Source of the DNA: a virus
Lineage: Duplodnaviria; Heunggongvirae; Uroviricota; Caudoviricetes
Reading direction: 5' to 3' (one strand)
DNA: 23,535 bases
Virus record (IMG/VR): IMGVR_UViG_2859799533_000003
Location: 1-23,535 of that record
Both the position numbers and the translations under genes were made by a program. The notes beneath the pieces were generated by a model. The model saw only the letters and a list, made by a program, of their open reading frames with translations. It ran no database searches and was not told the DNA's origin. Each line of letters begins with the position of its first letter. Position 1 is the first letter of the stretch. Below are positions 1-23,535 of this stretch, in pieces.

Positions 1-662
<662 letters not shown>

Positions 663-779
663 GTTGGCAAAAGCCGAATCTCCGCTGGCTGTTAGCTTGT
701 ATGACTATATTAATGATGCTTCGGCACTGGCCTGCCTCATAAATTTGTCGCTGAACCCTTCAGAGGTAAGGGGGCGCAA

Positions 780-1004
780 ATGATCCGGAATATTTTCAAA
801 CGGTTTACCAATCAGACTTTCCGTTGTCCTCGTCCGGGTCAGTGGTACACCACGCCTGCAGGGCATGTTCTACGTGTTAGCCTGGTTGACCGTGAATGTC
901 AGAAGGTGATTTGTGAACCGCTGGGCCGTAATTACCGCATCAGTATGCCGCTTATAGCCTTTCGCTCCGGAAAAAACATGAAGCATCTCGGAGGTGCTGC
1001 ATGA
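780..1004 (+). CDS. hypothetical small protein (74 aa), translationally coupled to downstream replication gene
   Basis: ORF with upstream purine-rich SD (aagggggcgcaaATG); stop overlaps next start (ATGA at 1001-1004). No recognisable family. Confidence 0.35.
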   Translation: MIRNIFKRFTNQTFRCPRPGQWYTTPAGHVLRVSLVDRECQKVICEPLGRNYRISMPLIAFRSGKNMKHLGGAA

Positions 1005-1825
1005 GTATGGAGCTGATGGTTAAAGCGATGAAAATTCGAGTGGGAAATCCATTGCGAAAACTGGTTCTGATTAAGCTGGCTGATAATGCCAGCGATCAGG
1101 GTGAGTGCTGGCCCAGCTACCAGCATATTGCTGACCAGTGCGAGATTAGCAAACGTTCTGTGATGAATCATATTGCGGCCCTTTGTGAGTCCGGGCTGGT
1201 AAAAAAAGTCACCCGGAAAGGTGAAAAAGGTAACTCAAGTAATATCTATCTCCTTCATCTTGATGGTGCAGGAGATTCACTAGGGGGTAGTGCAAATAAT
1301 TCACTATCTGGTGCAGCAAATTCACCAGGTAGTGCAGGAGTTGCACCAGGGGGTAGTGCAGGAGATTCACCCAGAACCAGTCACTCTTTTGAACCAGTCA
1401 AAGAACCAGTCAATGAACCAATAGCTGTTGGTGCATCAGTTGATGAGTCCGTGCGAGTTCGTTCAAACCGACCGGAATACTCTCCGGAGTTTGAGCAGGC
1501 ATGGCTGGCATATCCCAAACGTGCTGGTGGCAATTCAAAATCTGCAGCCTTCAAAGCCTGGAAAGCCCGTTTGAACGAGGGGGTAAACCCCGAAACCATG
1601 CTGGAAGGTGTGAAACGCTACGCGGGCTGGGTATCTGCGATGGGCAATAGCGGCACACAATTTGTGAAACAGGCTGTCACGTTCTTTGGTCCAGATCGTC
1701 ATTTCGAAGAATCCTGGGAAGTTCCTGCGGTATCTGCAGCCAGACGCGAGGACCCGTACTTCAAAGCCAGTTACGACAACGTGGACTACAGCCAGATCCC
1801 GGCAGGATTCAGGGGGGGATTATGA
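1001..1825 (+). CDS. phage replication/primosomal protein: N-terminal winged-HTH, low-complexity Gly/Ser/Ala linker, C-terminal DnaT-like (DUF1376/YdaU-like) domain
   Basis: 274-aa ORF; N-terminus resembles HTH replication initiators (LVLIKLADNASDQGECWPSYQHIADQCEISKRSV); C-terminus (EFEQAWLAYPKRAGGNSKSAAFKAWKAR) resembles DnaT C-terminal domain; position upstream of nin-like genes. Confidence 0.55.
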   Translation: MSMELMVKAMKIRVGNPLRKLVLIKLADNASDQGECWPSYQHIADQCEISKRSVMNHIAALCESGLVKKVTRKGEKGNSSNIYLLHLDGAGDSLGGSANNSLSGAANSPGSAGVAPGGSAGDSPRTSHSFEPVKEPVNEPIAVGASVDESVRVRSNRPEYSPEFEQAWLAYPKRAGGNSKSAAFKAWKARLNEGVNPETMLEGVKRYAGWVSAMGNSGTQFVKQAVTFFGPDRHFEESWEVPAVSAARREDPYFKASYDNVDYSQIPAGFRGGL

Positions 1826-2310
1826 GTCTTTTGAATGAAGTTCAGAAATTCATTGAAGCCCATCCGGGGTGTACTTCCGGAGACATTGCGGATGCTTTTG
1901 CAGGTTACTCACGGCAGTGCGTTCTGCAGTCAGCAAGCAAATTACGTCAGAGTGGTCGTGTGGCTCACCGTTGTGAAGGGGATACACGCAGACATTTCCC
2001 GCGCCTGACTGAGAGAGCGCAGGAGGCGGAACCGCAACCAGTTCGTGAAACCAGACCTGTGCGCAATTTCTATGTCGGCACTAACGACCCGCGGGAGATT
2101 TTGTGCCTGACCCGCCAGGCGGAAGAACTGGAGTCCAGGGGCTTATACCGTCGTGCTGCAACGGTGTGGATGGCGGCATTCCGTGAAAGCCACTCCCAGC
2201 CAGAACGAAACAATTTTCTGGCGCGTCGTGAGCAGTGTTTACGGAAAAGCAGTAAGCGCGCTGTATCGGGTGATGAGTGGTATCTGTCAGGGAATTACGT
2301 GGGGGCTTAA
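1822..2310 (+). CDS. hypothetical phage protein (162 aa); possibly a small regulator
   Basis: ORF overlapping upstream stop (ATGA) and downstream start; no confident family assignment from sequence alone. Confidence 0.4.
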   Translation: MSLLNEVQKFIEAHPGCTSGDIADAFAGYSRQCVLQSASKLRQSGRVAHRCEGDTRRHFPRLTERAQEAEPQPVRETRPVRNFYVGTNDPREILCLTRQAEELESRGLYRRAATVWMAAFRESHSQPERNNFLARREQCLRKSSKRAVSGDEWYLSGNYVGA

Positions 2311-2963
2311 TGAGTAATAAATATTGCCAGGCGCTGGTGGAACTGCGGAACAAACCAGCCCATGAACTGAAGGAAGTGGGCGATCAGTGGCGCACGCCGG
2401 ACAACATTTTCTGGGGAATTAACACCTTGTTTGGTCCGTTTGTTCTGGATCTGTTCACTGACGGTGATAACGCCAAATGTGCCGCGTATTACACGGCGGA
2501 AGACAACGCGCTGGCGCATGACTGGTCAGAACGTCTTGCGGAGCTTAAAGGTGCTGCCTTTGGCAATCCCCCGTACAGCCGCGCCAGTCAGCATGAGGGG
2601 CAATACATCATCGGCATGCGTTACATCATGAAGCATGCCAGTGCCATGCGTGATAAAGGCGGGCGCTATGTTTTCCTGATCAAAGCTGCCACCAGCGAAG
2701 TGTGGTGGCCGGAAGATGCAGATCATATTGCTTTTATTCGCGGGCGTATTGGTTTTGAACTGCCTGCCTGGTTTATCCCGAAAGACGAAAAGCAGGTGCC
2801 AACAGGTGCTTTCTTCGCTGGTGCTATTGCTGTTTTCGACAAGACCTGGAAGGGACCGGCAATCAGCTACATCGGGCGCGATGAACTTGAGGCATGTGGT
2901 GAGGCATTTCTGGCGCAGGTTCGCCAGCAGGCGGAAAAACTGGTCAGGGAGATGGTGGCATGA
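2310..2963 (+). CDS. phage Dam-type DNA N6-adenine methyltransferase
   Basis: 217-aa ORF from ATG 2310 (the six-frame ORF opens at 2277); NPPY catalytic motif (AFGNPPYSR); length and context typical of lambdoid-phage Dam MTases. Confidence 0.75.
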   Translation: MSNKYCQALVELRNKPAHELKEVGDQWRTPDNIFWGINTLFGPFVLDLFTDGDNAKCAAYYTAEDNALAHDWSERLAELKGAAFGNPPYSRASQHEGQYIIGMRYIMKHASAMRDKGGRYVFLIKAATSEVWWPEDADHIAFIRGRIGFELPAWFIPKDEKQVPTGAFFAGAIAVFDKTWKGPAISYIGRDELEACGEAFLAQVRQQAEKLVREMVA

Positions 2964-3349
2964 AGCTAATACTGCCTTTTCCGCCCAGCGTGAACACGTA
3001 CTGGCGACACCCCAACAAAGGGGCGTTTGCTGGTAAGAGCCTGATAAGCGCGGCGGGGCGAAAATTCCAGAGCGCGGCGTGCGCAGCAATAGTTGAGCAG
3101 TTACGTCGTCTGCCGAAACCAACGTCGGCACCTGCTTCAGTGGAGATCGTGTTGTTTCCTCCGGATAACCGGATCCGCGATCTGGACAACTATAACAAGG
3201 CGCTGTTTGACGCCCTGACCCACGCGGGTGTGTGGGAAGACGACAGTCAGGTGAAAAGAATGCTGGTGGAGTGGGGACCGGTTATCCCGAAAGGGAAGGT
3301 CGAGATCACTATCAGTAAGTACGAGAAAACGGCGGGTGCAGCCGCCTGA
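2960..3349 (+). CDS. rusA: RusA-type Holliday junction resolvase
   Basis: 129-aa ORF; RusA signatures (LPFPPSVNTYWR ... DLDNYNKALFDALTHAGVWEDDSQV); start overlaps Dam stop. Confidence 0.85.
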   Translation: MKLILPFPPSVNTYWRHPNKGAFAGKSLISAAGRKFQSAACAAIVEQLRRLPKPTSAPASVEIVLFPPDNRIRDLDNYNKALFDALTHAGVWEDDSQVKRMLVEWGPVIPKGKVEITISKYEKTAGAAA

Positions 3350-3368
3350 TCAAGAGGAGAAACGAAGT

Positions 3369-4178
3369 ATGAATAATCTGATGGTCATTGATGGTATTGA
3401 AGTTCGTCGTGATGCTTATGGGCGTTACAGCCTGAACGATCTGCATCGCGCAGCAGTAGCATCTGGTGCAAATGCCAGAACCAAGGAGCCGGGAAAGTTT
3501 ATTTCCAGCCAACAAACTGTTGAGCTTGTTCATGAATTGACCAACACCCAGAATTTGGGTGTTGACCCGGTGAGTATGATTCATGGGGGAAATGAACGGG
3601 GAACGTATGTCTGCAAGGAACTGGTGTATGCCTATGCAATGTGGATCAGCCCGTCATTCCATCTGAAGGTGATCCGTACTTTCGACATGGTAACCAGCGC
3701 ACCGGAAAAATTATCCGGACAGGCTGCTGACAAGATGCAGGCTGGTGTGATTCTGCTGGACTTTATGCGCCGGGAATTAAACCTGTCTAACTCTTCAGTG
3801 CTTGGTGCCTGTCAGAAACTCCAGGAGGCTGTTGGCTTACCGAATCTGGCACCGCGCTATGCCATTGATGCTCCTGCTGACGCGCCTGATGGCTCAAGTC
3901 GCCCCACGCTGTCGCTGAGTGCACTGCTGAAACAGTATGGTATCCGCCTTACGGCTAATCAGGCATATCACCAGATGGTGAAGCTGGGGATCGTCGAGCA
4001 GCGCGAACGATACAGCCGTACCGCGATTAACAACATCAAAAAATTCTGGTCGCTGACAGCGAAAGGCTGCATGTTCGGCAAGAACATCACCTGTCCTGCA
4101 AATCCGCGCGAGACGCAGCCGCATTTCTTCGAATCCCGATTCCCTGAGCTGTTAAAGCTGCTCGATACCGTTCATTGA
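3369..4178 (+). CDS. KilA-N domain DNA-binding protein (Roi/antirepressor-like)
   Basis: ATG at 3369 preceded by AGGAG-type SD; N-terminal KilA-N-like region (MNNLMVIDGIEVRRDAYGRYSLNDLHRA). Confidence 0.6.
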   Translation: MNNLMVIDGIEVRRDAYGRYSLNDLHRAAVASGANARTKEPGKFISSQQTVELVHELTNTQNLGVDPVSMIHGGNERGTYVCKELVYAYAMWISPSFHLKVIRTFDMVTSAPEKLSGQAADKMQAGVILLDFMRRELNLSNSSVLGACQKLQEAVGLPNLAPRYAIDAPADAPDGSSRPTLSLSALLKQYGIRLTANQAYHQMVKLGIVEQRERYSRTAINNIKKFWSLTAKGCMFGKNITCPANPRETQPHFFESRFPELLKLLDTVH

Positions 4179-4179
4179 G

Positions 4180-4827
4180 GTGACTGTGAGAGCACTACTG
4201 ACCCCTGAAATTGCCCCGCGTATGGGGATCGTATTGTTCAGACCAGGTTCAGAGCTGATGCCCCTGTTTATGCAGGGGCGTGTCCTGCTGGAGCCTGAGC
4301 CGGAGCGTTATTCATCTTTCGCCAGTGGTGCCGTTCCGGCGGCATCACAACCGCTGGCGGATGATCCTGCCGTTCGGGCCGTGTTCCGCAATGAGGAAGT
4401 GATCCGTCGTGCTGGTGGCGTGGAATGTCTTGAAAGCTGGTTACTTCGTGAAAAAGGCTGCCAGTGGCCTCATTCCGACTGGCACAGCGAGAACATGACC
4501 ACAATGCGACACGCTCCGGGTGCAATCCGTCTGTGCTGGCACTGCGATAATCAGCTGCGCGATCAGTTCACGGAACGGCTGGAATCAATGGCAACGGATA
4601 ACTGTGCCCGCTGGGTGTTGTCTGTTGTGCGTCGGGATCTCGGTTTTGATGACAGTCACGTTGTGACAATGCCGGAACTGTGCTGGTGGCTGATTCGTAA
4701 TGATCTGGCGGATGCCTTACCGGAAAGTGCAGCCCGTAAGGCACTGAGATTACCGAAGCCTGTTGTGCCGACTGTTACCCGGGAAAGTGACCTTGTGCCT
4801 TCGGTTCCTGCCACCAGCATCATCTAG
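4180..4827 (+). CDS. hypothetical phage protein (215 aa, GTG start; Cys/His-rich central region)
   Basis: Long ORF in nin-like region; CQWPHSDWHSENMTTMRHAPGAIRLCWHCDN cluster; start codon uncertain (GTG 4180 or ATG 4222). Confidence 0.4.
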   Translation: MTVRALLTPEIAPRMGIVLFRPGSELMPLFMQGRVLLEPEPERYSSFASGAVPAASQPLADDPAVRAVFRNEEVIRRAGGVECLESWLLREKGCQWPHSDWHSENMTTMRHAPGAIRLCWHCDNQLRDQFTERLESMATDNCARWVLSVVRRDLGFDDSHVVTMPELCWWLIRNDLADALPESAARKALRLPKPVVPTVTRESDLVPSVPATSII

Positions 4828-4842
4828 GATAAGGCGAAAAAG

Positions 4843-5175
4843 GTGCTGGCGCTGAAAGTGGATCCGGAGTCGCCGGAGTCTTTTATGTTACGCCCAAAAC
4901 GTCGCCGCTGGGTTAATGAAAAGTACACGCGCTGGGTTAAGACACAGCCGTGTGCATGTTGTGGAAAGCCCGCTGATGATCCCCACCACCTGATAGGTCA
5001 CGGTCAGGGTGGAATGGGAACAAAAGCGCATGACCTTTTTGTGTTGCCTTTGTGCAGAAAACACCATGACGAACTGCATGCGGATACCGTGGCATTTGAA
5101 GAGAAGTATGGCTCCCAACTGGAGCTGATATTTCGTTTTATCGATCGCGCGCTGGCGATTGGTGTGCTGTCCTGA
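4843..5175 (+). CDS. DUF1364 (YbcO-like) Cys/His-motif protein, putative nuclease
   Basis: Motif pattern CACCG...HHLIGHGQGGMGTKAHDLFVLPLCRKHHDELH matches recalled YbcO family of lambdoid nin regions; GTG start at 4843 or ATG at 4885. Confidence 0.55.
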   Translation: MLALKVDPESPESFMLRPKRRRWVNEKYTRWVKTQPCACCGKPADDPHHLIGHGQGGMGTKAHDLFVLPLCRKHHDELHADTVAFEEKYGSQLELIFRFIDRALAIGVLS

Positions 5176-5192
5176 TTTTGTGGAGAAAGTTG

Positions 5193-5573
5193 ATGCGTGA
5201 TATTCAGATGGTTCTTGAACGCTGGGGGGCATGGGCTGCAAGTGGTAACACCGGGGTGGACTATTCTCCGATCGCTGCCGGATTCAAAGGACTTTTACCA
5301 TCTGCCACTAAACCACGTCCGGCCTGCTGCGATGATGACGGACTTATCATTGAAAACTGTCTTGCTCGTCTGAAGCAGAAAAAACCTGAGGAGTATTCGC
5401 TTCTCATTGCTCATTATTTGTTGCGAATATCAAAAAGACAGATAGCCAGGACGAGAAAGAAAAGCGAAAAAGCAATACGAATTGAGATGCAGATAGCCGA
5501 AGGGTTTATTGACGGATGTTTGTCTGTGCTGGGGGTAAGACTGGAGATGGACGACTGGCTGCTAAAAAAGTAA
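5193..5573 (+). CDS. Q: late-gene antiterminator, Q-like (short Stx-phage/phage-21 type)
   Basis: 126-aa ORF from ATG 5193 with GGAGA SD; N-terminus MRDIQMVLERWGAWAA resembles Q of Stx/lambdoid phages; followed by terminator-like hairpin and tRNA/late region as in Stx phages. Confidence 0.6.
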   Translation: MRDIQMVLERWGAWAASGNTGVDYSPIAAGFKGLLPSATKPRPACCDDDGLIIENCLARLKQKKPEEYSLLIAHYLLRISKRQIARTRKKSEKAIRIEMQIAEGFIDGCLSVLGVRLEMDDWLLKK

Positions 5574-5645
5574 AAAATGATTAGTGCGGTCCGCAAAAAG
5601 TATGTCAGTATGTTAAGAGTGGTTACTTCGCCACACAGCTTAAAC

Positions 5646-5665
5646 CCGCCGCGAGCGGTTTTTTT
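5646..5665 (+). terminator. candidate tR'-like intrinsic terminator downstream of Q
   Basis: Short GC stem ccgc/gcgg (5646-5658) followed by a 7-T run (5659-5665), about 75 bp after the Q stop. Confidence 0.35.
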
Positions 5666-5787
5666 ATGGCTGAAATCGGTCCAGTACAGTAAACGTGCTG
5701 GTGGCGGTGAATACCTGTCTTTCAGCTTGCTGGCTTTTTCGACAAGAGTTATTGGTGTGTCACGTTAACCGGAAAAGGGAAAAAGAC

Positions 5788-6135: not shown

Positions 6136-7185
6136 ATGCTTAATACTGTAAAAATATCCAGTTGTGAGTTAATCAACGCCGACTGCCTGGAATTTATCCG
6201 GTCGTTACCCGAAAATTCTGTTGACCTGATAGTCACGGACCCGCCGTACTTTAAAGTGAAGCCTGAGGGCTGGGATAACCAGTGGAAGGGCGACGATGAT
6301 TACCTGAAGTGGCTGGAGCAGTGTCTGGCGCAGTTCTGGCGGGTGCTGAAACCTGCCGGAAGTCTTTACCTGTTCTGTGGTCATCGCCTGGCATCTGATA
6401 TCGAAATCATGATGCGTGAACGCTTCAGTGTGCTGAACCATATTATCTGAGCGAAGCCGTCCGGACGCTGGAACGGATGCAACAAGGAAAGCCTGCGGGC
6501 GTATTTCCCCGCCACAGAGCGCATTCTGTTCGCGGAACATTATCAGGGGCCGTACCGCCCGAAAGATGATGGCTATGAGGCGAAGGGCAGGGTACTGAAA
6601 CAGCATGTGATGGCCCCGCTGATTTCTTACTTTCGTGATGCGCGAGCTGCCCTGGGGATAACGGCAAAACAGATTGCAGATGCCACAGGAAAGAAAAACA
6701 TGGTGTCGCACTGGTTCAGTGCCAGTCAGTGGCAGTTGCCGAATGAAAGCGATTATCTGAAATTACAGGCGCTGTTTGCCCGGGTGGCAGAAGAGAAACA
6801 TCAGCGGAGAGAACTGGAAAAGTCCCATTACCAACTGGTCAGCACATACAGTGAGCTGAGCCGGCAGTATATGGAACTGCTGAGTGAATATAAAAATTTG
6901 CGGAGGTATTTCGGTGTGACGGTGCAGGTGCCGTACACCGATGTGTGGACGTATAAACCGGTGCAGTACTATCCAGGGAAACATCCGTGCGAAAAACCGG
7001 CAGAAATGTTGCAGCAGATAATCAACGCGAGCAGTCGTCCGGGAGACCAGGTTGCAGATTTTTTTATGGGCTCAGGTTCAACGGTAAAAGCGGCACTGGC
7101 GCTCGGGCGTCGTGCGATTGGCGTTGAACTGGAGACCGGACGTTTTGAGCAGACAGTCAGGGAAGTTCAGGATTTAATCGTTTGA
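6136..7185 (+). pseudogene. DNA methyltransferase (N6A/N4C type: DPPY motif then FxGxG SAM motif) interrupted by an in-frame TGA at 6448-6450
   Basis: ORFs 6136-6450 and 6607-7185 are in the same frame and the frame stays open from 6451; motifs VTDPPYF (N-terminal) and FFMGSGST (C-terminal). Confidence 0.7.
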
Positions 7186-7234
7186 AACGGATGAGATTGC
7201 AGAATTAATTACGCACCATTATTATTCTGCTCCC

Positions 7235-7310
7235 GGCCCTTTAGCTCAGTGGTGAGAGCGAGCGACTCATAATCGCCAGGTCGCTGGTTCAAATCCAGCA
7301 AGGGCCACCA
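7235..7310 (+). tRNA. ileZ: tRNA-Ile2 (anticodon CAU, lysidine-type; Met cannot be excluded)
   Basis: 76 nt, perfect 7-bp acceptor and T stems, anticodon loop ctCATaa, encoded CCA; closely resembles recalled E. coli ileX. Symbol by synteny with Stx-phage tRNA trio. Confidence 0.8.
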
Positions 7311-7317
7311 TCACATA

Positions 7318-7391
7318 CCGCCATTAGCTCATCAGGAAAGAGCGCCAGCCTTCGAAGCTGGTTGCGCGGAGTTCGGGTCCCCGAAGGCGGT
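7318..7391 (+). tRNA. argN: tRNA-Arg (anticodon UCG), slightly non-canonical stems
   Basis: Cloverleaf folded by hand: D stem gctc/gagc, anticodon stem ccagc/gctgg, loop ctTCGaa; one mismatch each in acceptor and T stems; no encoded CCA. Symbol by synteny only. Confidence 0.55.
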
Positions 7392-7407
7392 TCATTATCT
7401 GTATCCT

Positions 7408-7484
7408 GCGTTGTTAGCTCAGCCGGACAGAGCAATTGCCTTCTAAGCAATCGGTCACTGGTTCGAATACAGTAGAACGCGCCA
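7408..7484 (+). tRNA. argO: tRNA-Arg (anticodon UCU)
   Basis: D stem gctc/gagc, anticodon stem attgc/gcaat, loop ctTCTaa, T loop ttcgaat, encoded CCA. Symbol by synteny only. Confidence 0.7.
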
Positions 7485-7734
7485 CACTTATTTTCCCTGG
7501 CTCGCTTTTGCGGGCTTTTTTTTAAATGTCTCACAATTCAGGCGGTTGACTGTTGTCTGGTTTGCGGGGAGTTTGTTAAAAGAAACTGGCATGGTGAATC
7601 CCCCTGTGCGGAGGGGCAATCAGCAACTGGTGTTTTGTCCCGACCCTTATCCTTTCTGTGCGGGTTCAGGTGCTGATACTGAACTCACCGGGAGGCACCC
7701 GGCACCATGCAATGGCACATAGCGCCACTCTCCA

Positions 7735-7760
7735 GCCCCTCTCCGGAGGGGCTTTCTTAT
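7735..7760 (+). terminator. terminator-like GC hairpin with T-rich tail in the tRNA to nanS-p intergenic region
   Basis: gcccctc tccg gaggggc (7735-7752) followed by tttcttat. Confidence 0.4.
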
Positions 7761-7986
7761 GGACAAAAAAATCCCGCGCTGGGAGACGCGGGCGGCAAGG
7801 AATAAACAACAAAACGTGAAGTAATATTTCAGCTGGCGAATAATATCCGACAGTAATCACTCTGCGCAATAGCGCGGCCTTTTTCATATTGCGGGCTGTT
7901 GTCTATCTTCTGCCATTGTCCTGTAACTTCCGGACTTCAGCCCGCTCCTCATTTTACTCACAATATTATCCAGGCCGGGAGGATTC

Positions 7987-16757: not shown

Positions 16758-17780
16758 TTGTTTACGACCCGCCAGTTACTCGGTTATACCGAACAAAAAG
16801 TGAAATTCCGTGCGCTGTTTCTGGAGCTGTTTTTCCGCCGTACGGTGAATTTCCACACCGAAGAGGTGATGCTGGACAAAATTACCGGAAAAACGCCGGT
16901 GGCGGCCTATGTCTCCCCGATCGTTGAAGGAAAAGTGCTTCGCCATCGCGGTGGTGAAACCCGCGTGTTACGTCCGGGCTACGTCAAGCCGAAACACGAA
17001 TTTAATTACCAGCAGGCGGTTGAGCGCCTTCCTGGTGAAGATCCGGCTCAGCTGAACGACCCGGCCTACCGTCGTCTGCGTATCATTACCGATAACCTCA
17101 AACAGGAAGAGCACGCCATTGTCCAGGTGGAAGAAATGCAGGCGGTGAATGCCGTGCTGTATGGCAAATACACCATGGAAGGGGATCAGTTTGATACTGT
17201 CGAGGTGGATTTCGGGCGCTCTGAAGGAAATAACATTGAGCAGGCTGACGGTAAAAAATGGTCTGAGCAGGACCGTGATACGTTTGATCCGACGCATGAT
17301 ATTGACCTCTACTGCGATCAGGCCAGCGGCCTTGTGAATATCGCCATTATGGACGGTACGGTCTGGCGTCTGCTGAATGGCTTTAAGCTGTTCCGCGAAA
17401 AACTGGATACCCGTCGCGGCTCAAATTCACAACTCGAAACGGCAGTGAAAGATCTGGGCGCAGTGGTGTCCTTCAAGGGGTATTACGGCGATCTGGCCAT
17501 TGTGGTGGCGAAAACGTCTTATGTGGCAGAGGACGGTACCGAAAAACGTTATCTGCCGGAGGGCATGCTGGTGCTGGGGAATACGGCGGCAGAGGGGATT
17601 CGTTGCTATGGTGCCATTAAGGATGCACAGGCGTTGTCTGAAGGAGTGGTGGCTTCTTCCCGTTACCCGAAACACTGGCTGACCGTGGGCGATCCGTCCT
17701 GTGAATTCACCATGACGCAGTCCGCTCCGCTGATGGTGCTGCCGGATCCGGATGAGTTTGTGGTGGTACAGGTGAAATAA
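16758..17780 (+). CDS. E: major capsid protein (lambda gpE-like); 5' end abuts IS629, native start and RBS replaced
   Basis: 340-aa ORF collinear with recalled lambda E (FTTRQLL ... SPIVEGKVLRHRGG ... KLDTRRGSNSQLETAVKDLG ... SAPLMVLPDPDEFVVVQVK); ORF begins at TTG 3 bp after the IS629 terminus. Confidence 0.85.
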   Translation: MFTTRQLLGYTEQKVKFRALFLELFFRRTVNFHTEEVMLDKITGKTPVAAYVSPIVEGKVLRHRGGETRVLRPGYVKPKHEFNYQQAVERLPGEDPAQLNDPAYRRLRIITDNLKQEEHAIVQVEEMQAVNAVLYGKYTMEGDQFDTVEVDFGRSEGNNIEQADGKKWSEQDRDTFDPTHDIDLYCDQASGLVNIAIMDGTVWRLLNGFKLFREKLDTRRGSNSQLETAVKDLGAVVSFKGYYGDLAIVVAKTSYVAEDGTEKRYLPEGMLVLGNTAAEGIRCYGAIKDAQALSEGVVASSRYPKHWLTVGDPSCEFTMTQSAPLMVLPDPDEFVVVQVK

Positions 17781-17788
17781 TCCGTGAG

Positions 17789-17816
17789 CGGGGCGAAATG
17801 CCCCCGTGTCTTTTTT
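17789..17816 (+). terminator. terminator-like hairpin plus T6 directly after the capsid gene
   Basis: cggggc gaaat gcccc(c)g followed by tgtctttttt; lies between E stop and FI SD (aggagg). Confidence 0.45.
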
Positions 17817-17830
17817 CACAGGAGGCTGAG

Positions 17831-18214
17831 ATGGCAACAAAAGAAGAAAATCTGAATCGTCTTCGTCAACTGGCTGGCCTGCTGGGGCGCGAGGCGGATA
17901 TGTCGGGGAGTGCTGCGGATATTGCTCAACGTGTGTCTGAGTGGGAAGAGGAGCTTGCTGTTTCCCCGGAGGGCATTATGCACTCTGATGAGAGCGGGGC
18001 TGATCAAAATCACACAGACGATGGTGAGCAGTTGAACAACACGGATGCTCCGGATGATGTTAAAGCCGTCCGGGTACGGAAGTGCCTGCAAGTAATGGGG
18101 TATTGCCCGGAGACAGGTCGTCCCGTTGAGCTGGCGTTACGGGGTATGTGTGTTCTGGTGCCATCATCACTGGCAACGGCCATGATACAGCACGGAACGG
18201 CTGAATATGCGTGA
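17831..18214 (+). CDS. FI: DNA-packaging protein FI-like
   Basis: ATG 17831 with AGGAGG SD; acidic low-complexity middle and conserved position between E and FII; weak similarity to recalled lambda FI. Confidence 0.5.
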   Translation: MATKEENLNRLRQLAGLLGREADMSGSAADIAQRVSEWEEELAVSPEGIMHSDESGADQNHTDDGEQLNNTDAPDDVKAVRVRKCLQVMGYCPETGRPVELALRGMCVLVPSSLATAMIQHGTAEYA

Positions 18215-18558
18215 TTTTCAGAATGCCTTTGATGCTGCCCTCGCCGGGGTAGACAGTACGATCGTTGAAGTGATGGGGCTCTGTGCGCAGTTCACCTCGG
18301 GGCACAGTGTGGCAGCGAAGTTCAGGGGGTTTTTGATGATCCGGAGTCGCTGGGGTTTACCGGTGGCGGGGTCCGTATTGAAGGAAGCAGCCCGTCATTA
18401 TTTGTGCGGACGGATACGGTTCGTGCCGTGCGGCGTGGTGACACGCTGACCATTAATGGTGAGATATTCTGGGTGGATCGTGTTTCTCCGGATGACGGGG
18501 GCAGCTGTTATCTCTGGCTCAACCGTGGTCAACCACCCGCAGTTAACCGGCGACGATA
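18207..18558 (+). pseudogene. FII: head-tail joining protein FII-like, frameshifted (1-bp deletion in G5 run at 18325-18329)
   Basis: N-terminal frame (MRDFQNAFDAALAGVDSTI...TSG...RG) and C-terminal frame (VFDDPE...FWVDRVSPDDGGSCYLWLNRGQPPAVNRRR) both match recalled lambda FII but are offset by one base at agggggttttt. Confidence 0.7.
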
Positions 18559-18574
18559 AACGCAGGGTGAAATT

Positions 18575-19108
18575 ATGGCGATAAAAGGGCTTGATCAGGC
18601 GATTGACAATCTGAGCCGGGTTCGTAAAAACGCCATTCCGGCGGCTTCAGCAATGGCCATTAACCGCGTGGCCACAACGGCGATTAATCAGTCTTCATCA
18701 CAGGTTGCCCGGGAGACAAAGGTTCGCCGGAAACTGGTTAAGGAACGGTCCAGACTGAAACGGGCGACGGTCAGAAATCCGAATGCCAAAATTATCGTTA
18801 ACCGCGGTGATCTCCCTGTGATTAAGCTGGGGATCAGGATGCTGGGGCGTCGCCCGAACAGCATACTTAAAGCCGGTCAGCATCGGTATCAGCGGGCATT
18901 TATTCAGCGATTAAAAAATGGTCGCTGGCATGTCATGCAGCGTGTGGCCGGGAAAAACCGTTACCCCATTGATGTGGTGAAAATCCCGATGGCGGCCCCA
19001 CTGAAACAGGCATTTGATGAGAATGTTGACCGTATCCGGCGTGAACGCCTGCCTAAAGAACTGGCATACGCGCTGAAACAACAACTGAGGATTGCAATAA
19101 AACGATGA
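18575..19108 (+). CDS. Z: minor tail protein Z-like
   Basis: 177-aa ORF, near-collinear with recalled lambda Z (MAIKGL.QA..NLSR...INRVA...SQVARETKVRRKLVKER.RLKRATV...RWHVMQRVAGKNRYPIDVVKIPMA). Confidence 0.85.
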   Translation: MAIKGLDQAIDNLSRVRKNAIPAASAMAINRVATTAINQSSSQVARETKVRRKLVKERSRLKRATVRNPNAKIIVNRGDLPVIKLGIRMLGRRPNSILKAGQHRYQRAFIQRLKNGRWHVMQRVAGKNRYPIDVVKIPMAAPLKQAFDENVDRIRRERLPKELAYALKQQLRIAIKR

Positions 19109-19499
19109 AACACACTGACATTCGTGCCGCAGTGCTGGATGCGCTCGAGCAGCATGAACACGGGCGACGCTGTTTGATGGTCGCCCCGTTGTTTTTGACG
19201 AAGAGGATTTTCCTGCGATCGCGGTTTATCTGACGGATGCAGAGTATACCGGTGAAGAGCTGGATGCAGATACCTGGCGGGCCACGCTGCATATTGAGGT
19301 GTTTTTACCGGCACAGGTACCGGATTCAGAGCTTGATCAGTGGATGGAAAGCCGGATTTACCCGGCGATGACCGCGATCCCGGCACTGGCAGGACTGATT
19401 ACCACGATGGTTACGCAGGGCTATGAGTATCGTCGTGATGACGATATGGCGTTATGGAGTTCTGCAGATCTGACTTATTCCATTACATACGAGATGTGA
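19105..19499 (+). pseudogene. U: minor tail protein U-like, frameshifted (1-bp deletion in G run at 19162-19164)
   Basis: N-terminus MKHTDIRAAVLDALEQHEHG in one frame; remainder (TLFDGRPVVFDEEDFPAIAVYLTDAEYTGEELD...LTYSITYEM) in the adjacent frame; both match recalled lambda U. Confidence 0.75.
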
Positions 19500-19506
19500 G
19501 GACGAT

Positions 19507-20258
19507 ATGGCAACACCAAATCCCTTGAGCCGGTAAAAGGTGCCGGTACCACTCTGTGGGTTTACAACGGCAAGGGTGATGCTTATGCAAACCCGTTGTC
19601 AGACGATGACTGGCAGCGACTGGCTAAGGTGAAGGATCTGACGCCGGGCGAGATGACGGCAGAATCCTACGATGATAACTACCTGGATGATGAAGACGCG
19701 GACTGGACCGCGACCGGGCAGGGGCAGAAATCTGCAGGTGATACCAGTTTTACGCTGGCCTGGAAACCGGGAGAGGAAGGCCAGAAAGGGCTTATAGGCT
19801 GGTTTGAAAGCGGCGATGTCCGGGCCTATAAAATCCGTTTTCCGAATGGCACGGTGGATGTGTTTCGTGGCTGGGTCAGCAGTATCGGTAAGGCCGTGAC
19901 GGCGAAAGAAGTGATCACCCGCACGGTGAAAGTCACTAACGTGGGTAAACCTTCTGTAGCGGAAGAACGCAGCAAAATTACGCCGGTCAGTGCGATTAAG
20001 GTGACGCCGACATCCGGTACGGTGGCAAAAGGGAAAACAACCACCCTGACGGTTTCTTTTGAGCCGGAAAGTGCAACCGACAAGACGTTCAGAGCGGTTT
20101 CCGCCGATCCGTCGAAAGCCACCATTAGTGTGAAAGATATGACAATTACGGTAAACGGCGTGGCGACAGGTAAGGTGCAGATCCCTGTGGTGAGCGGAAA
20201 TGGTCAGTTCGCCGCAGTGGCTGAAGTCACCGTTACTGAAGCGGGCGCTGCAGGGTAA
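19507..20258 (+). pseudogene. V: major tail protein V-like, frameshifted near the N-terminus (1-bp deletion in C run at 19530-19531)
   Basis: MATPNPLS then stop; the adjacent frame continues [41 protein letters not shown]... matching recalled lambda V through to the stop at 20258. Confidence 0.75.
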
Positions 20259-20271
20259 ACGGAGGTAATAC

Positions 20272-20703
20272 ATGTTTCTGAAAACAGAACAATTTGAATA
20301 TAACGGTGTGTCTGTCACGCTTTCCGAATTGTCTGCGCTGCAGCGTATCGAGCATCTTGCCCTCCTGAAACGGCGTGCAGAACAGGCAGAATCCTGCGGC
20401 AACCTGCAGGTAAGCGTGGAAGATCTCGTCAGAACCGGCGCGTTTCTGGTGGCGATGTCCCTGTGGCATAACCATCCACAGAAAACGCAGTCACCGTCAA
20501 TGAATGAGGCCGTGATGAAGATAGAGCAGGAAGTGCTCACCACCTGGCCTGCCGATGCCATTGCCCGGGCGGAAGACGTGGTGTTGTGCCTGTCCGGGAT
20601 GATCGAAGCTGTTCGTCCGGATACTGATATTACTGAAGTGGCGAAAAATAACACGCTGACTGATGATGATTTTTCTGCGGGAAAGTCTTCGACGGCGAGC
20701 TGA
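20272..20703 (+). CDS. G: tail assembly chaperone G-like
   Basis: 143-aa ORF with GGAGG SD; matches recalled lambda G (MFLKTE.FE.NGV.VTLSELSALQRIEHLAL ... AMSLWHNHPQKTQ.PSMNEAV). Confidence 0.85.
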   Translation: MFLKTEQFEYNGVSVTLSELSALQRIEHLALLKRRAEQAESCGNLQVSVEDLVRTGAFLVAMSLWHNHPQKTQSPSMNEAVMKIEQEVLTTWPADAIARAEDVVLCLSGMIEAVRPDTDITEVAKNNTLTDDDFSAGKSSTAS

Positions 20704-21143
20704 ACTTTGCCCTCAGACTGGCGCGTGAGATGGGGAGACTCGACTGGCGCGCCATGCTTGCCGGGATGACATCCACCGAATATGCCGACTGGCACCGTTT
20801 TTACCGCACGCATTATTTTCAGGATACCCAGCTGGATATGCATTTTTCCGGGCTGACGTACGCTGTACTCAGCCTGTTTTTTTGCGATCCGGATATGCAT
20901 CCCTCTGATTTCAGTCTGCTTGTCCCCCGGCATGAGGAAGAGCAGGTGGAGAGGCCGGATGAGGACAAAATGCTGATGCAGAAAGCGGCAGGACTTGCCG
21001 GAGGCGTCCGGTTCGGTGGGGACGGAGGGCGCGATATTTTATCGTCTGCGGATGTGGCGGATGTCATGGTGGATGATGCCGCATTAATGATGGCTTCAGC
21101 GGGGATTCCGGGAGGTGTGAGATATGTCCCAGCCGGTTGGTGA
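20272..21143 (+). CDS. GT: G-T fusion tail assembly protein made by programmed -1 frameshift
   Basis: Slippery heptamer G GGA AAG in the G frame at 20679-20685; -1 frame continues GKVFDGELNFALRLAREMGRLDWRAMLAGM... matching recalled lambda T. Confidence 0.7.
20679..20685 (+). other. programmed -1 ribosomal frameshift slippery site (GGGAAAG)
   Basis: Heptamer in register with G codons (G GGA AAG), 6 codons before the G stop; conserved lambda-type G/GT recoding signal. Confidence 0.7.
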
Positions 21144-22873
21144 TCTTGTTATTGACCTGAGTCTGGATGCTGTCCGTTTCGATGAGCAGATGAGCCGGGT
21201 AAGGCGTCATTTTTCAGGTCTGGATACCGACGCCAGAAAAACCGCCAGTGCTGTTGAACAGGGCCTGAGCCGCCAGGCGCTGGCTGCACAAAAAGCCGGG
21301 ATTTCCGTCGGGCAGTATAAAGCGGCCATGCGAACCCTGCCCGCACAGTTTACGGATATCGCCACGCAGCTTGCAGGTGGTCAGAATCCCTGGCTGATCC
21401 TGCTGCAACAGGGCGGTCAGGTGAAGGACTCCTTCGGCGGGATGATCCCCATGTTCAGGGGGCTTGCCGGTGCGATCACCCTGCCGATGGTCGGGGTCAC
21501 CTCGCTGGCGGTGGCGACAGGTGCGCTGGTGTACGCCTGGTACCAGGGAGATTCCACGCTTTCAGCGTTTAATAAAACCCTGGTTCTTTCCGGTAATCAG
21601 TCCGGACTGACTGCCGATCGTATGCTGACTCTCTCAAGAGCCGGGCAGGCAGCAGGGCTGACGTTTAACCAGGCGAAAGAGTCACTGGCAGCCCTGGTGA
21701 ATGCCGGTGTGCGTGGTGGTGAACAGTTTGATGCCATCAACCAGAGTGTCGCGCGTTTTGCGTCTGCATCCGGTGTGGAGGTGGATAAAGTCGCTGAAGC
21801 CTTCGGGAAGCTGACCACTGACCCGACGTCGGGACTGATGGCGATGGCGCGCCAGTTCCGTAACGTGACGGCAGAGCAGATTGCGTATGTTGCACAGCTG
21901 CAGCGTTCCGGAGACGAGGCCGGGGCATTGCAGGCGGCGAACGATATCGCCACGAAAGGCTTTGATGAGCAGACCCGTCGCCTGAAAGAAAACATGGGAA
22001 CACTGGAGACCTGGGCGGATAAAACAGGGAAGGCATTCAAATCGATGTGGGATGCCATTCTGGATATCGGTCGTCCTGAATCCTCAGCGGATATGCTCGC
22101 CAGTGCGCAGAAGGCATTTGATGAGGCGGATAAAAAATGGCAGTGGTACCAGAGCCGGAGCCAGCGCCGGGGAAAGACCTCCTCTTTTCGTGCGAACCTT
22201 CAGGGGGCATGGGATGACCGGGAAAATGCCCGTCTGGGTCTGGCAGCGGCCACGCTGCAGTCGGATATGGAAAAAGCCGGTGAACTGGCGGCAAGGGACC
22301 GGGCTGAGCGTGAGGCGTCACAGCTGAAGTATACCGGAGAGGCGCAGAAGGCGTATGAGCGCCTGCAGACGCCGCTGGATAAATATACCGCCCGTCAGAA
22401 AGAGCTGAATAAGGCCCTGAAAGACGGAAAAATCCTGCAGGCGGATTGCAACACGCTGATGGCGTCGGCAAAAAAGGATTATGAATAGACGCTGAAAAAG
22501 CCGTCCGGTGTGAAGGTGTCTGCCGGTGAGCGCCAGGAAGACCGGGCGCATGCAGCCATGCTGGCGCTTGAAACCGAGCTCAGGACGCTGGAAAAACACA
22601 GCGGTGTGAATGAGAAAATCAGCCAGCAGCGCCGGGATTTATGGGAAGCGGAAAATCAGTATGTGGTCCTGAAAGAGGCCGCCACGAAACGGCAGTTATC
22701 TGAGCAGGAAAAATCCCTGCTGGCTCATGAGAAAGAGACGCTGGAGTACAAACGCCAGCTGGCTGAGCTGGGAGACAAGATTGAACACCAGAAGCGGCTG
22801 AATGAGCTGGCACAGCAGGCGGCGCGGTTTGAACAGCAGCAGAGCGCGAAGCAGGCGGCAATCAGCGCAAAAG
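21124..22873 (+). pseudogene. H: tail tape measure protein H-like: in-frame TAG at 22486-22488 and 3' truncation by the IS911-like element at 22874
   Basis: ORF 21124-22488 (N-terminus MSQPVGDLVIDLSLDAVRFDEQMSRV... as in lambda H) continues in the same frame after the TAG; the frame then runs into the IS terminus (tgaagtggtcaac...) at 22874. Confidence 0.75.

Positions 22874-23535
<662 letters not shown>

Follow-up and report, generated by a model that had tools for sequence, protein, structure and literature searches.

The 23,535-nucleotide (nt) stretch considered here, positions 1 to 23,535 of the IMG/VR virus record IMGVR_UViG_2859799533_000003 (hereafter the window, at its full length), is the late region of a lambdoid prophage of the Escherichia coli/Shigella type, as judged by its open reading frame (ORF) listing, composition and BLAST matches, and the element is a long-dead remnant of a Shiga toxin (Stx)-phage-like prophage that is riddled with insertion sequences (IS). 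Its point lesions very probably fall into two classes: nonsense codons that reflect real, inherited decay, and single-base deletions in G or C runs that are artefacts of a long-read consensus. The original prediction, made from the sequence alone, counted seven gene-inactivating lesions between positions 6136 and 22488, these being four frameshifts and three nonsense codons; all seven are present in the sequence, but the coordinates of two were wrong and one of the frameshifts lies in an IS gene. Overlooked in that count were a further nonsense codon (TAG) in the DUF968 gene, just upstream of the range considered, and two silent intergenic deletions, as well as three larger lesions, i.e., a block of IS elements, the loss of the start of the capsid gene, and truncation of the tape-measure gene by IS911.

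Exact-protein look-ups identified the source of the window as CP026866.1 (GCA_002949955.1; 4,680,268 bp), in which it corresponds to positions 1051202-1074736, with 0 mismatches over the 15,329 overlapping nt that were compared. To judge from its product names and from a sister record, the host chromosome is that of a boydii-like Shigella, either Shigella boydii or Shigella dysenteriae; this sister record, GCF_002950275.1, is named S. boydii ATCC in one published table, and apart from that table we found no mention of CP026866, CP026867, CP026762, CP026795 or their GCA/GCF identifiers in searchable papers. No complete E. coli genome covered at least 80% of the window in BLAST searches. The layout was mapped onto an intact reference prophage from NZ_CM185152.1 (L001), and individual lesions were compared with three near-identical sisters, CP026762.1, CP026795.1 and an 11.9-kb Logan contig (SRR8186700), which show 0-4 substitutions relative to the source in ~12 kb and carry both its tape-measure TAG and its IS911 junction.

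On these sequence comparisons the four nonsense codons are real inherited mutations. The TGA at 6448-6450, the TAA at 8218-8220 and the TAG at 22486-22488 lie exactly where the original prediction had placed them, and each is the sole in-frame stop of its gene: TGG>TGA relative to the intact Stx-phage methylase, TAC>TAA at codon 78 of 653 in the esterase, and TCG>TAG in the tape measure. The fourth, CAG>TAG at 4825-4827, interrupts the DUF968 gene at codon 214 and splits it into products of 213 and 110 amino acids (aa); it is common to CP026867.1, while the draft AMKC01000157 has CAG at this position and an intact 329-aa gene. The references carry TGG, TAC, TCG and CAG at the four positions, in alignments that are gap-free and colinear. 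Searches with the exact truncated products found the 104-aa methylase product on 134 contigs (148 index blocks), the 77-aa and 564-aa esterase products on 269 and 123 contigs, respectively, these being named Shigella boydii or dysenteriae, and the 454-aa tape-measure product on ~10 contigs; the latter occurs together with the IS911 junction in CP026762.1, CP026795.1, the draft LPTT01000272 and several Logan runs. Among the contigs with truncated products are some from fragmented assemblies of short-read type (Logan and drafts). As the exact products recur across so many independent contigs, we consider the stops to be real, and their recurrence in independent assemblies and strains is what is expected of inherited pseudogenes. 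The earlier view that the nonsense substitutions were less likely to be artefacts than the frameshifts is thus borne out, the alleles being found on tens to hundreds of independent contigs.

Two of these genes have additional features of note. The TGA allele of the methylase is also found in a second, different prophage of the source genome (CP026866.1:1861277-1881591) and in many contigs (L016-L022) that have a PF03589 antiterminator module and not Phage_antitermQ; evidently this dead allele has recombined between lambdoid prophages, or is old. A patch of five single-nucleotide polymorphisms inside the gene, at 6604-6744, has the look of a recombination tract. In the esterase gene the TAA removes only the N-terminal DUF1737 domain, and an ATG-started ORF of 564 aa located 3' of the stop (8254-9948) retains complete SASA and DUF6645 domains and is annotated as a sialate O-acetylesterase in several NCBI records, although no obvious ribosome-binding site was seen 5' of its ATG. 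On the basis of this domain content it is not certain that the TAA is gene-inactivating.

The frameshifts present a very different picture. As originally described, all four are 1-bp losses in G or C runs, and those in the U gene (G4>G3 at 19162-19164) and in an IS orfA gene (15675-15678) had been placed correctly. The FII lesion, however, is a G5>G4 change at 18299-18302, where the run of the relatives reads CCTCGGGGGCACA, and not at 18325-18329 as had been proposed; the G5 run meant there, ~25 nt further downstream and in fact at 18323-18327, is intact in every relative. Similarly, the V lesion is a C4>C3 change at 19522-19524 (the sisters read AATCCCCTTGAG), not at 19529-19531. Comparison with the relatives makes it probable that the FII, U and V deletions are assembly errors. 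FII (117 aa), U (131 aa) and V (250 aa) are all full-length in CP026762.1, CP026795.1 and the SRR8186700 contig, so that, in keeping with the suspicion that the homopolymer frameshifts resembled sequencing error, these three are private to one assembly and absent from its sisters and from a short-read-type contig. The two intergenic deletions are likewise probable assembly errors: at 5657-5658 the source has GG versus GGG in all relatives (CP026867.1 (L015), L017 and L018), and at 17790-17793, in the gap between the capsid and FI genes, it has G4 versus G5 in all relatives. The FII, U, V and 17790 runs are one base longer in all three sisters and in every more distant relative.

We considered whether the V lesion could be a nanopore error at a Dcm site (CCWGG), as the first reference reads CCCCTGGAG; the true sisters, however, read CCCCTTGAG, and the lesion is a plain C4>C3 deletion. 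Nor does any of the four frameshifts lie at a site of programmed frameshifting: the affected G/C runs are inside single ORFs, and in the relatives, where each run is one base longer, the frame is uninterrupted. Two such programmed -1 sites are present in the window and look normal, one at the IS orfA/orfB overlap (~15819-15826) and the other at the lambda-type G/T overlap (20703-20730), and the 15675 lesion was rejected as the IS programmed frameshift as that site is ~145 nt further downstream, at the orfA/orfB overlap. A search for a short-read contig of the source's own IS-deletion lineage, conducted with the 340-aa TTG-start capsid product from the IS junction, found none. Three contigs that start at the capsid junction (L025-L027) belong to phages 0.4-1.3% divergent, in other genomes, and have the longer runs, while the 340-aa capsid call in another contig (L024) is in an intact context. 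Outside the source, the 80-aa product of a frameshifted FII gene was seen only in chromosome-scale records (NCTC, O104:H4 C227-11 and CP027763.1), apart from two Logan contigs in which the surrounding phage is another one; additional 1-bp indels are present in one of these two.

The character of these deletions became clearer when all differences private to the source were tallied. Over 12.4 colinear kb there are five 1-bp G/C-run deletions versus one substitution; four of the deletions are within the window, and the fifth, G5>G4 near position 1077248, splits potA (CP026866.1 ~1076472-1077607, ~2.5 kb to the right of the window) into 245 and 127 aa, compared to 378 aa in the sisters. potA is a core gene, present in 5426/5426 E. 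coli genomes. Extending the comparison to 23.8 kb gave 6 private deletions, all in G/C runs, with no insertions, none of the 236 A/T runs of at least 4 bases affected, and three private substitutions, of which two lie in IS copies. Two more deletions, C6>C5 and G4>G3, came from a third region of the source chromosome (11.4 kb), in a second prophage, for a total of eight over ~35 kb, all in G/C runs and with the IS orfA site excluded. The run-length class most often shortened in the source assembly is G5 (3/20).

Other assemblies of the same accession block behave in a similar manner. CP026867.1 also has eight private deletions, with hits that increase with run length (3/63 runs of 4 bases, 2/16 of 5, 2/2 of 6 and 1/1 of 7); these split its HTH_36 gene, Q, esterase, IS600 orfB and IS66 tnpC, and one is in a tRNA-Arg (window-equivalent 7379). 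CP026795.1 has 0 substitutions relative to the SRR8186700 contig and two deletions in G/C runs that break up its terminase and portal genes, while neither CP026762.1 nor the Logan contig has any private deletion. Pooled over three assemblies, 15/255 G/C runs of at least 4 bases are shortened versus 0/552 A/T runs (Fisher p = 2e-8), and 16/16 indel events are 1-bp deletions. The deletions are blind to function, affecting intergenic DNA, the core gene potA, dead genes and a second prophage. What we find, i.e., single-base, homopolymer-only, length-dependent and function-blind changes that are absent from near-identical assemblies, is the profile expected of consensus error. Since the deletions are private, confined to G/C runs, and accompanied by far fewer substitutions than indels, and since insertions are lacking, we infer under-calling by the consensus rather than strain-specific mutation.

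The fourth frameshift requires separate treatment. The G5>G4 change at 15675-15678 is not in a phage gene; it is within orfA of an IS3-family element that, judging by its orfA sequence, we take to be IS629-like, and in which the intact run reads ACCGGGGGCGGTG. In CP027763.1 the same change affects an IS copy of E. coli-type background, again beside a G5 copy, and it is also found in NCTC records and in the pINV records of the same series. Because G4 recurs on several backgrounds we favor a systematic miscall, and an artefact is the likelier origin of the orfA G4, if by no means a secure one. The alternative, which we regard as a possible but less probable one, is that FII, U, V and the intergenic deletions are artefacts while the orfA G4 is a real, inherited variant with a defective transposase that has been copied within the genome. 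The two G4 copies of the source genome differ by 1 mismatch, as against 4 mismatches in 971 nt for its G5 copy (another copy of the element lies at CP026866.1:3327220). Short-read-type contigs likewise contain G4, in a diverged remnant of the IS on a 42.6-kb Logan contig (3 samples) and in the draft AATJKE01, and both observations weigh against our assignment of this site to the consensus errors. Conversely, its recurrence in the CP027763.1, NCTC and pINV records suggests a context-specific miscall, it belongs to the G5 class that is the most frequently shortened one, and an orfA-defective copy would need transposase in trans to spread. The G5 runs of both FII and orfA are recurrently shortened in unrelated chromosome-scale assemblies (NCTC, O104:H4 C227-11 and CP027763.1), which suggests that these are context-specific systematic miscalls; the two runs could act as quick quality markers for long-read assemblies of E. 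coli and Shigella.

Several considerations weigh against reading the phage-gene and intergenic deletions as consensus errors. Shigella genomes accumulate pseudogenes, and G/C runs are genuine hotspots of slippage. The sisters are isolates other than the source strain, which leaves room for mutations that are real and private to that strain, and the short-read platform of the Logan runs is deduced from contig breaks at IS boundaries. In addition, CP026866.1 is only presumed to be a PacBio assembly, from its accession block, which matches the PacBio announcement of Shigella genomes by Kim et al. 2018; PMC10132075 cites CP026832, of that block, as PacBio from this source.

The most direct challenge is that all seven lesions are genuine, the frameshifts being strain-specific slipped-strand deletions in a dead prophage under relaxed selection. 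Natural slippage in the G/C runs of a pseudogene-rich Shigella genome, in an element so defunct that frameshifts would not be selected against, would fit, but we judge this unlikely, as like private deletions split the core gene potA and strike intergenic DNA, the private indel:substitution ratio is ~5:1 in the source and 2:0 in CP026795.1 versus the short-read-type contig, and the A/T runs are untouched and insertions absent. Moreover, the private deletions differ from one assembly of the series to the next, and are lacking in CP026762.1 and the Logan contig. In mutation-accumulation spectra of E. coli, substitutions outnumber indels and A/T runs are affected too, which also counts against genuine mutation. 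A variant of this idea, that the G/C-run deletions are real and private to each historical culture-collection strain of Shigella owing to a deletion-biased mutational process at G/C homopolymers, e.g., during decades of storage, is very unlikely in our estimation; if true, such a process would spare A/T runs and yield almost no substitutions. We are at least as skeptical of within-culture heterogeneity, in which hypermutable tracts vary in length and the consensus took a minor or shorter state. The recurrent shortening of the FII and orfA runs in unrelated assemblies could be accommodated in this way, but the hits have no functional logic, the change is always a deletion, and short-read-type assemblies consistently have the longer state; runs of 3-7 bases are also well below the typical lengths of contingency loci. 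Finally, it is scarcely conceivable that everything is artefactual, the three nonsense codons included, and that the actual DNA has intact prophage genes: the assembly demonstrably has errors, but independent contigs (134, 269, 123 and ~10), obtained from numerous samples with numerous assemblers, carry the exact truncated products, and the nonsense changes are substitutions, few of which are private to the source (three in 23.8 kb).

Returning to the two-class reading, the four nonsense substitutions would have arisen in ancestors and been passed on to related strains, after which IS-mediated events would have removed the integrase/repressor side and the tail-tip genes. In the source lineage, IS events would also have removed the ~10 kb between and including the lysis and decoration genes, leaving behind an inverted scrap of nu1 and depriving the capsid gene of its start codon. 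The deletions in FII, U and V, like both intergenic ones, would be consensus errors of a long-read-only assembly that under-called G/C runs, and the orfA deletion probably is as well. The sisters show that the tape-measure TAG and the IS911 truncation came first, and that the head-gene deletion beside the IS629-like element is specific to the source lineage.

It had been supposed that deciding which lesions are real would distinguish a dead prophage from a partly functional one. This is not supported: with the frameshifts corrected the prophage is still dead, because IS elements stand in place of ~10 kb of phage genes, the start codon of the capsid gene is gone and the tape-measure gene, besides its real TAG, is cut by IS911 (Table 1). 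Mapping against L001 and the sisters revealed no integrase, excisionase or repressor side, IS911 there abutting yecN-cmoA-cmoB-torZ; the holin, lysozyme, Rz, terminase, portal, protease and decoration genes are missing from the region now occupied by IS elements; there are no tail-tip genes beyond the tape measure, where potB-potA-pepT directly follow IS911; and no stx genes are present within the window. The complete set of modules that a functional or inducible lambdoid prophage would have is therefore lacking. What does remain is closely related to L001, the segment 663-5674 being 95-97% identical to L001 13714-19582, and the segment 16756-22873 (capsid, FI, FII, Z, U, V, G, T and the truncated tape measure) 99.5% identical to it. 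The capsid alignment begins at L001 32882, while the intact gene begins at L001 32878. All that is left of the packaging module is the nu1 fragment.

Table 1. Features of the prophage remnant, in window coordinates.
Feature	Position	Strand	Remarks
Partial IS911 (3' part of orfB), left boundary	1-665	+	NCBIfam transpos_IS3; annotated as IS3-like element IS911 in E. coli genomes
HTH_36, PerC, Dam methylase, RusA, KilA-N, DUF968, antiterminator Q (replication and late regulation)	663-5674	+	Pfam
DUF968 gene	4186-5175	+	Nonsense codon at 4825-4827
DNA N6/N4 methyltransferase pseudogene	6136-7185	+	TGA at 6448-6450
tRNA cluster Met(cat), Arg(tcg), Arg(tct)	7235-7484	+	ARAGORN; all intact; arrangement as in L001 and Stx phages
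NanS-p-type SASA carbohydrate esterase	7987-9948	+	1962 nt, the intact length, 653 codons; TAA at 8218-8220
IS block in place of lysis and head-assembly genes	10216-15174		No homology to L001
IS600 remnant, orfB	10259-11077	-	NCBIfam; RefSeq names under BLAST hits
ISSso6, IS110 family	11232-12407	+	NCBIfam; RefSeq names under BLAST hits
IS66-family element, tnpC, tnpB, tnpA	12699-15088	-	NCBIfam; RefSeq names under BLAST hits
Inverted 278-bp small terminase (nu1) fragment	15175-15452	-	Pfam Phage_Nu1; 98.2% identical to L001 26860-27137 reversed
IS3-family element, presumably IS629-like	15447-16755	+	1309 bp vs canonical 1310 bp; orfA G-run at 15675-15678
Major capsid gene, lambda E-like	16756-17780	+	First 4 nt, including ATG, lost at IS junction
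FII head-tail joining gene	18207-18559	+	G5>G4 at 18299-18302
U minor tail gene	19105-19499	+	G4>G3 at 19162-19164
V major tail gene	19507-20258	+	C4>C3 at 19522-19524
H tape-measure gene	21124-22873	+	TAG at 22486-22488; cut by IS911 at 22873
Partial IS911, right boundary	22871-23535	-	Inverted duplicate of 1-665; self-BLAST 99.7% identity

Neither component of this picture is new, the element being a routine, IS-eroded, Stx-phage-like remnant of Shigella to which a well-known class of assembly error has been added. The window shares with the late regions of Stx and other lambdoid phages the order Q, methylase, tRNA Met-Arg-Arg, nanS-p and lambda-like head and tail genes, and is 90-97% identical in DNA sequence to Stx2 phages and to lambdoid prophages of E. 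coli; unlike these phages it is without the lysis and head-assembly block and the tail-tip genes, and has four nonsense codons. It is also a typical example of the IS-driven decay of Shigella genomes, with IS911, IS600, ISSso6, an IS66-family element and the IS629-like element truncating or replacing modules. The G/C-run deletions, for their part, resemble the errors of long-read-only assemblies (PacBio RS-era or early nanopore) in being 1-bp homopolymer deletions that are private, length-dependent, and split core and prophage genes alike. According to PMC12007338, long-read errors are predominantly homopolymer indels, and in a nanopore example given there A/T runs are the most affected, whereas only G/C runs are affected in the source, a difference in bias that points to a different chemistry or consensus caller.

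The deletions found here lead us to expect about one G/C-run deletion per 4 kb in CP026866.1 which, if extrapolated, would amount to ~1,000 or more genome-wide; a burden of roughly a thousand false frameshifts in G/C runs is probable for this record and for two or more sibling assemblies, which call for polishing ahead of any pseudogene analysis. Without short-read polishing, CP026866.1, CP026867.1 and CP026795.1 would overstate frameshifts in analyses of pseudogenes, the core genome and genome decay, those in core genes such as potA included. Exact-product look-ups over public assemblies, as used here, can tell real lesions from artefacts without reads.

The junctions of the remnant provide some further indications of its history. 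The flanking genes, torZ-cmoB-cmoA-yecN on the left and potB-potA-pepT-roxA on the right, are not adjacent in E. coli, and as they are not neighbors there an IS911-mediated inversion or rearrangement is implied. The inverted nu1 scrap sits between the IS66-family and the IS629-like elements, and its orientation indicates an inversion plus a deletion, not a simple deletion; in CP026867.1 more of nu1 survives (139 aa), with a further IS66 copy after it. Beyond roxA, on the right side, the source departs from its sisters, with a phage integrase in place of phoQ/phoP.

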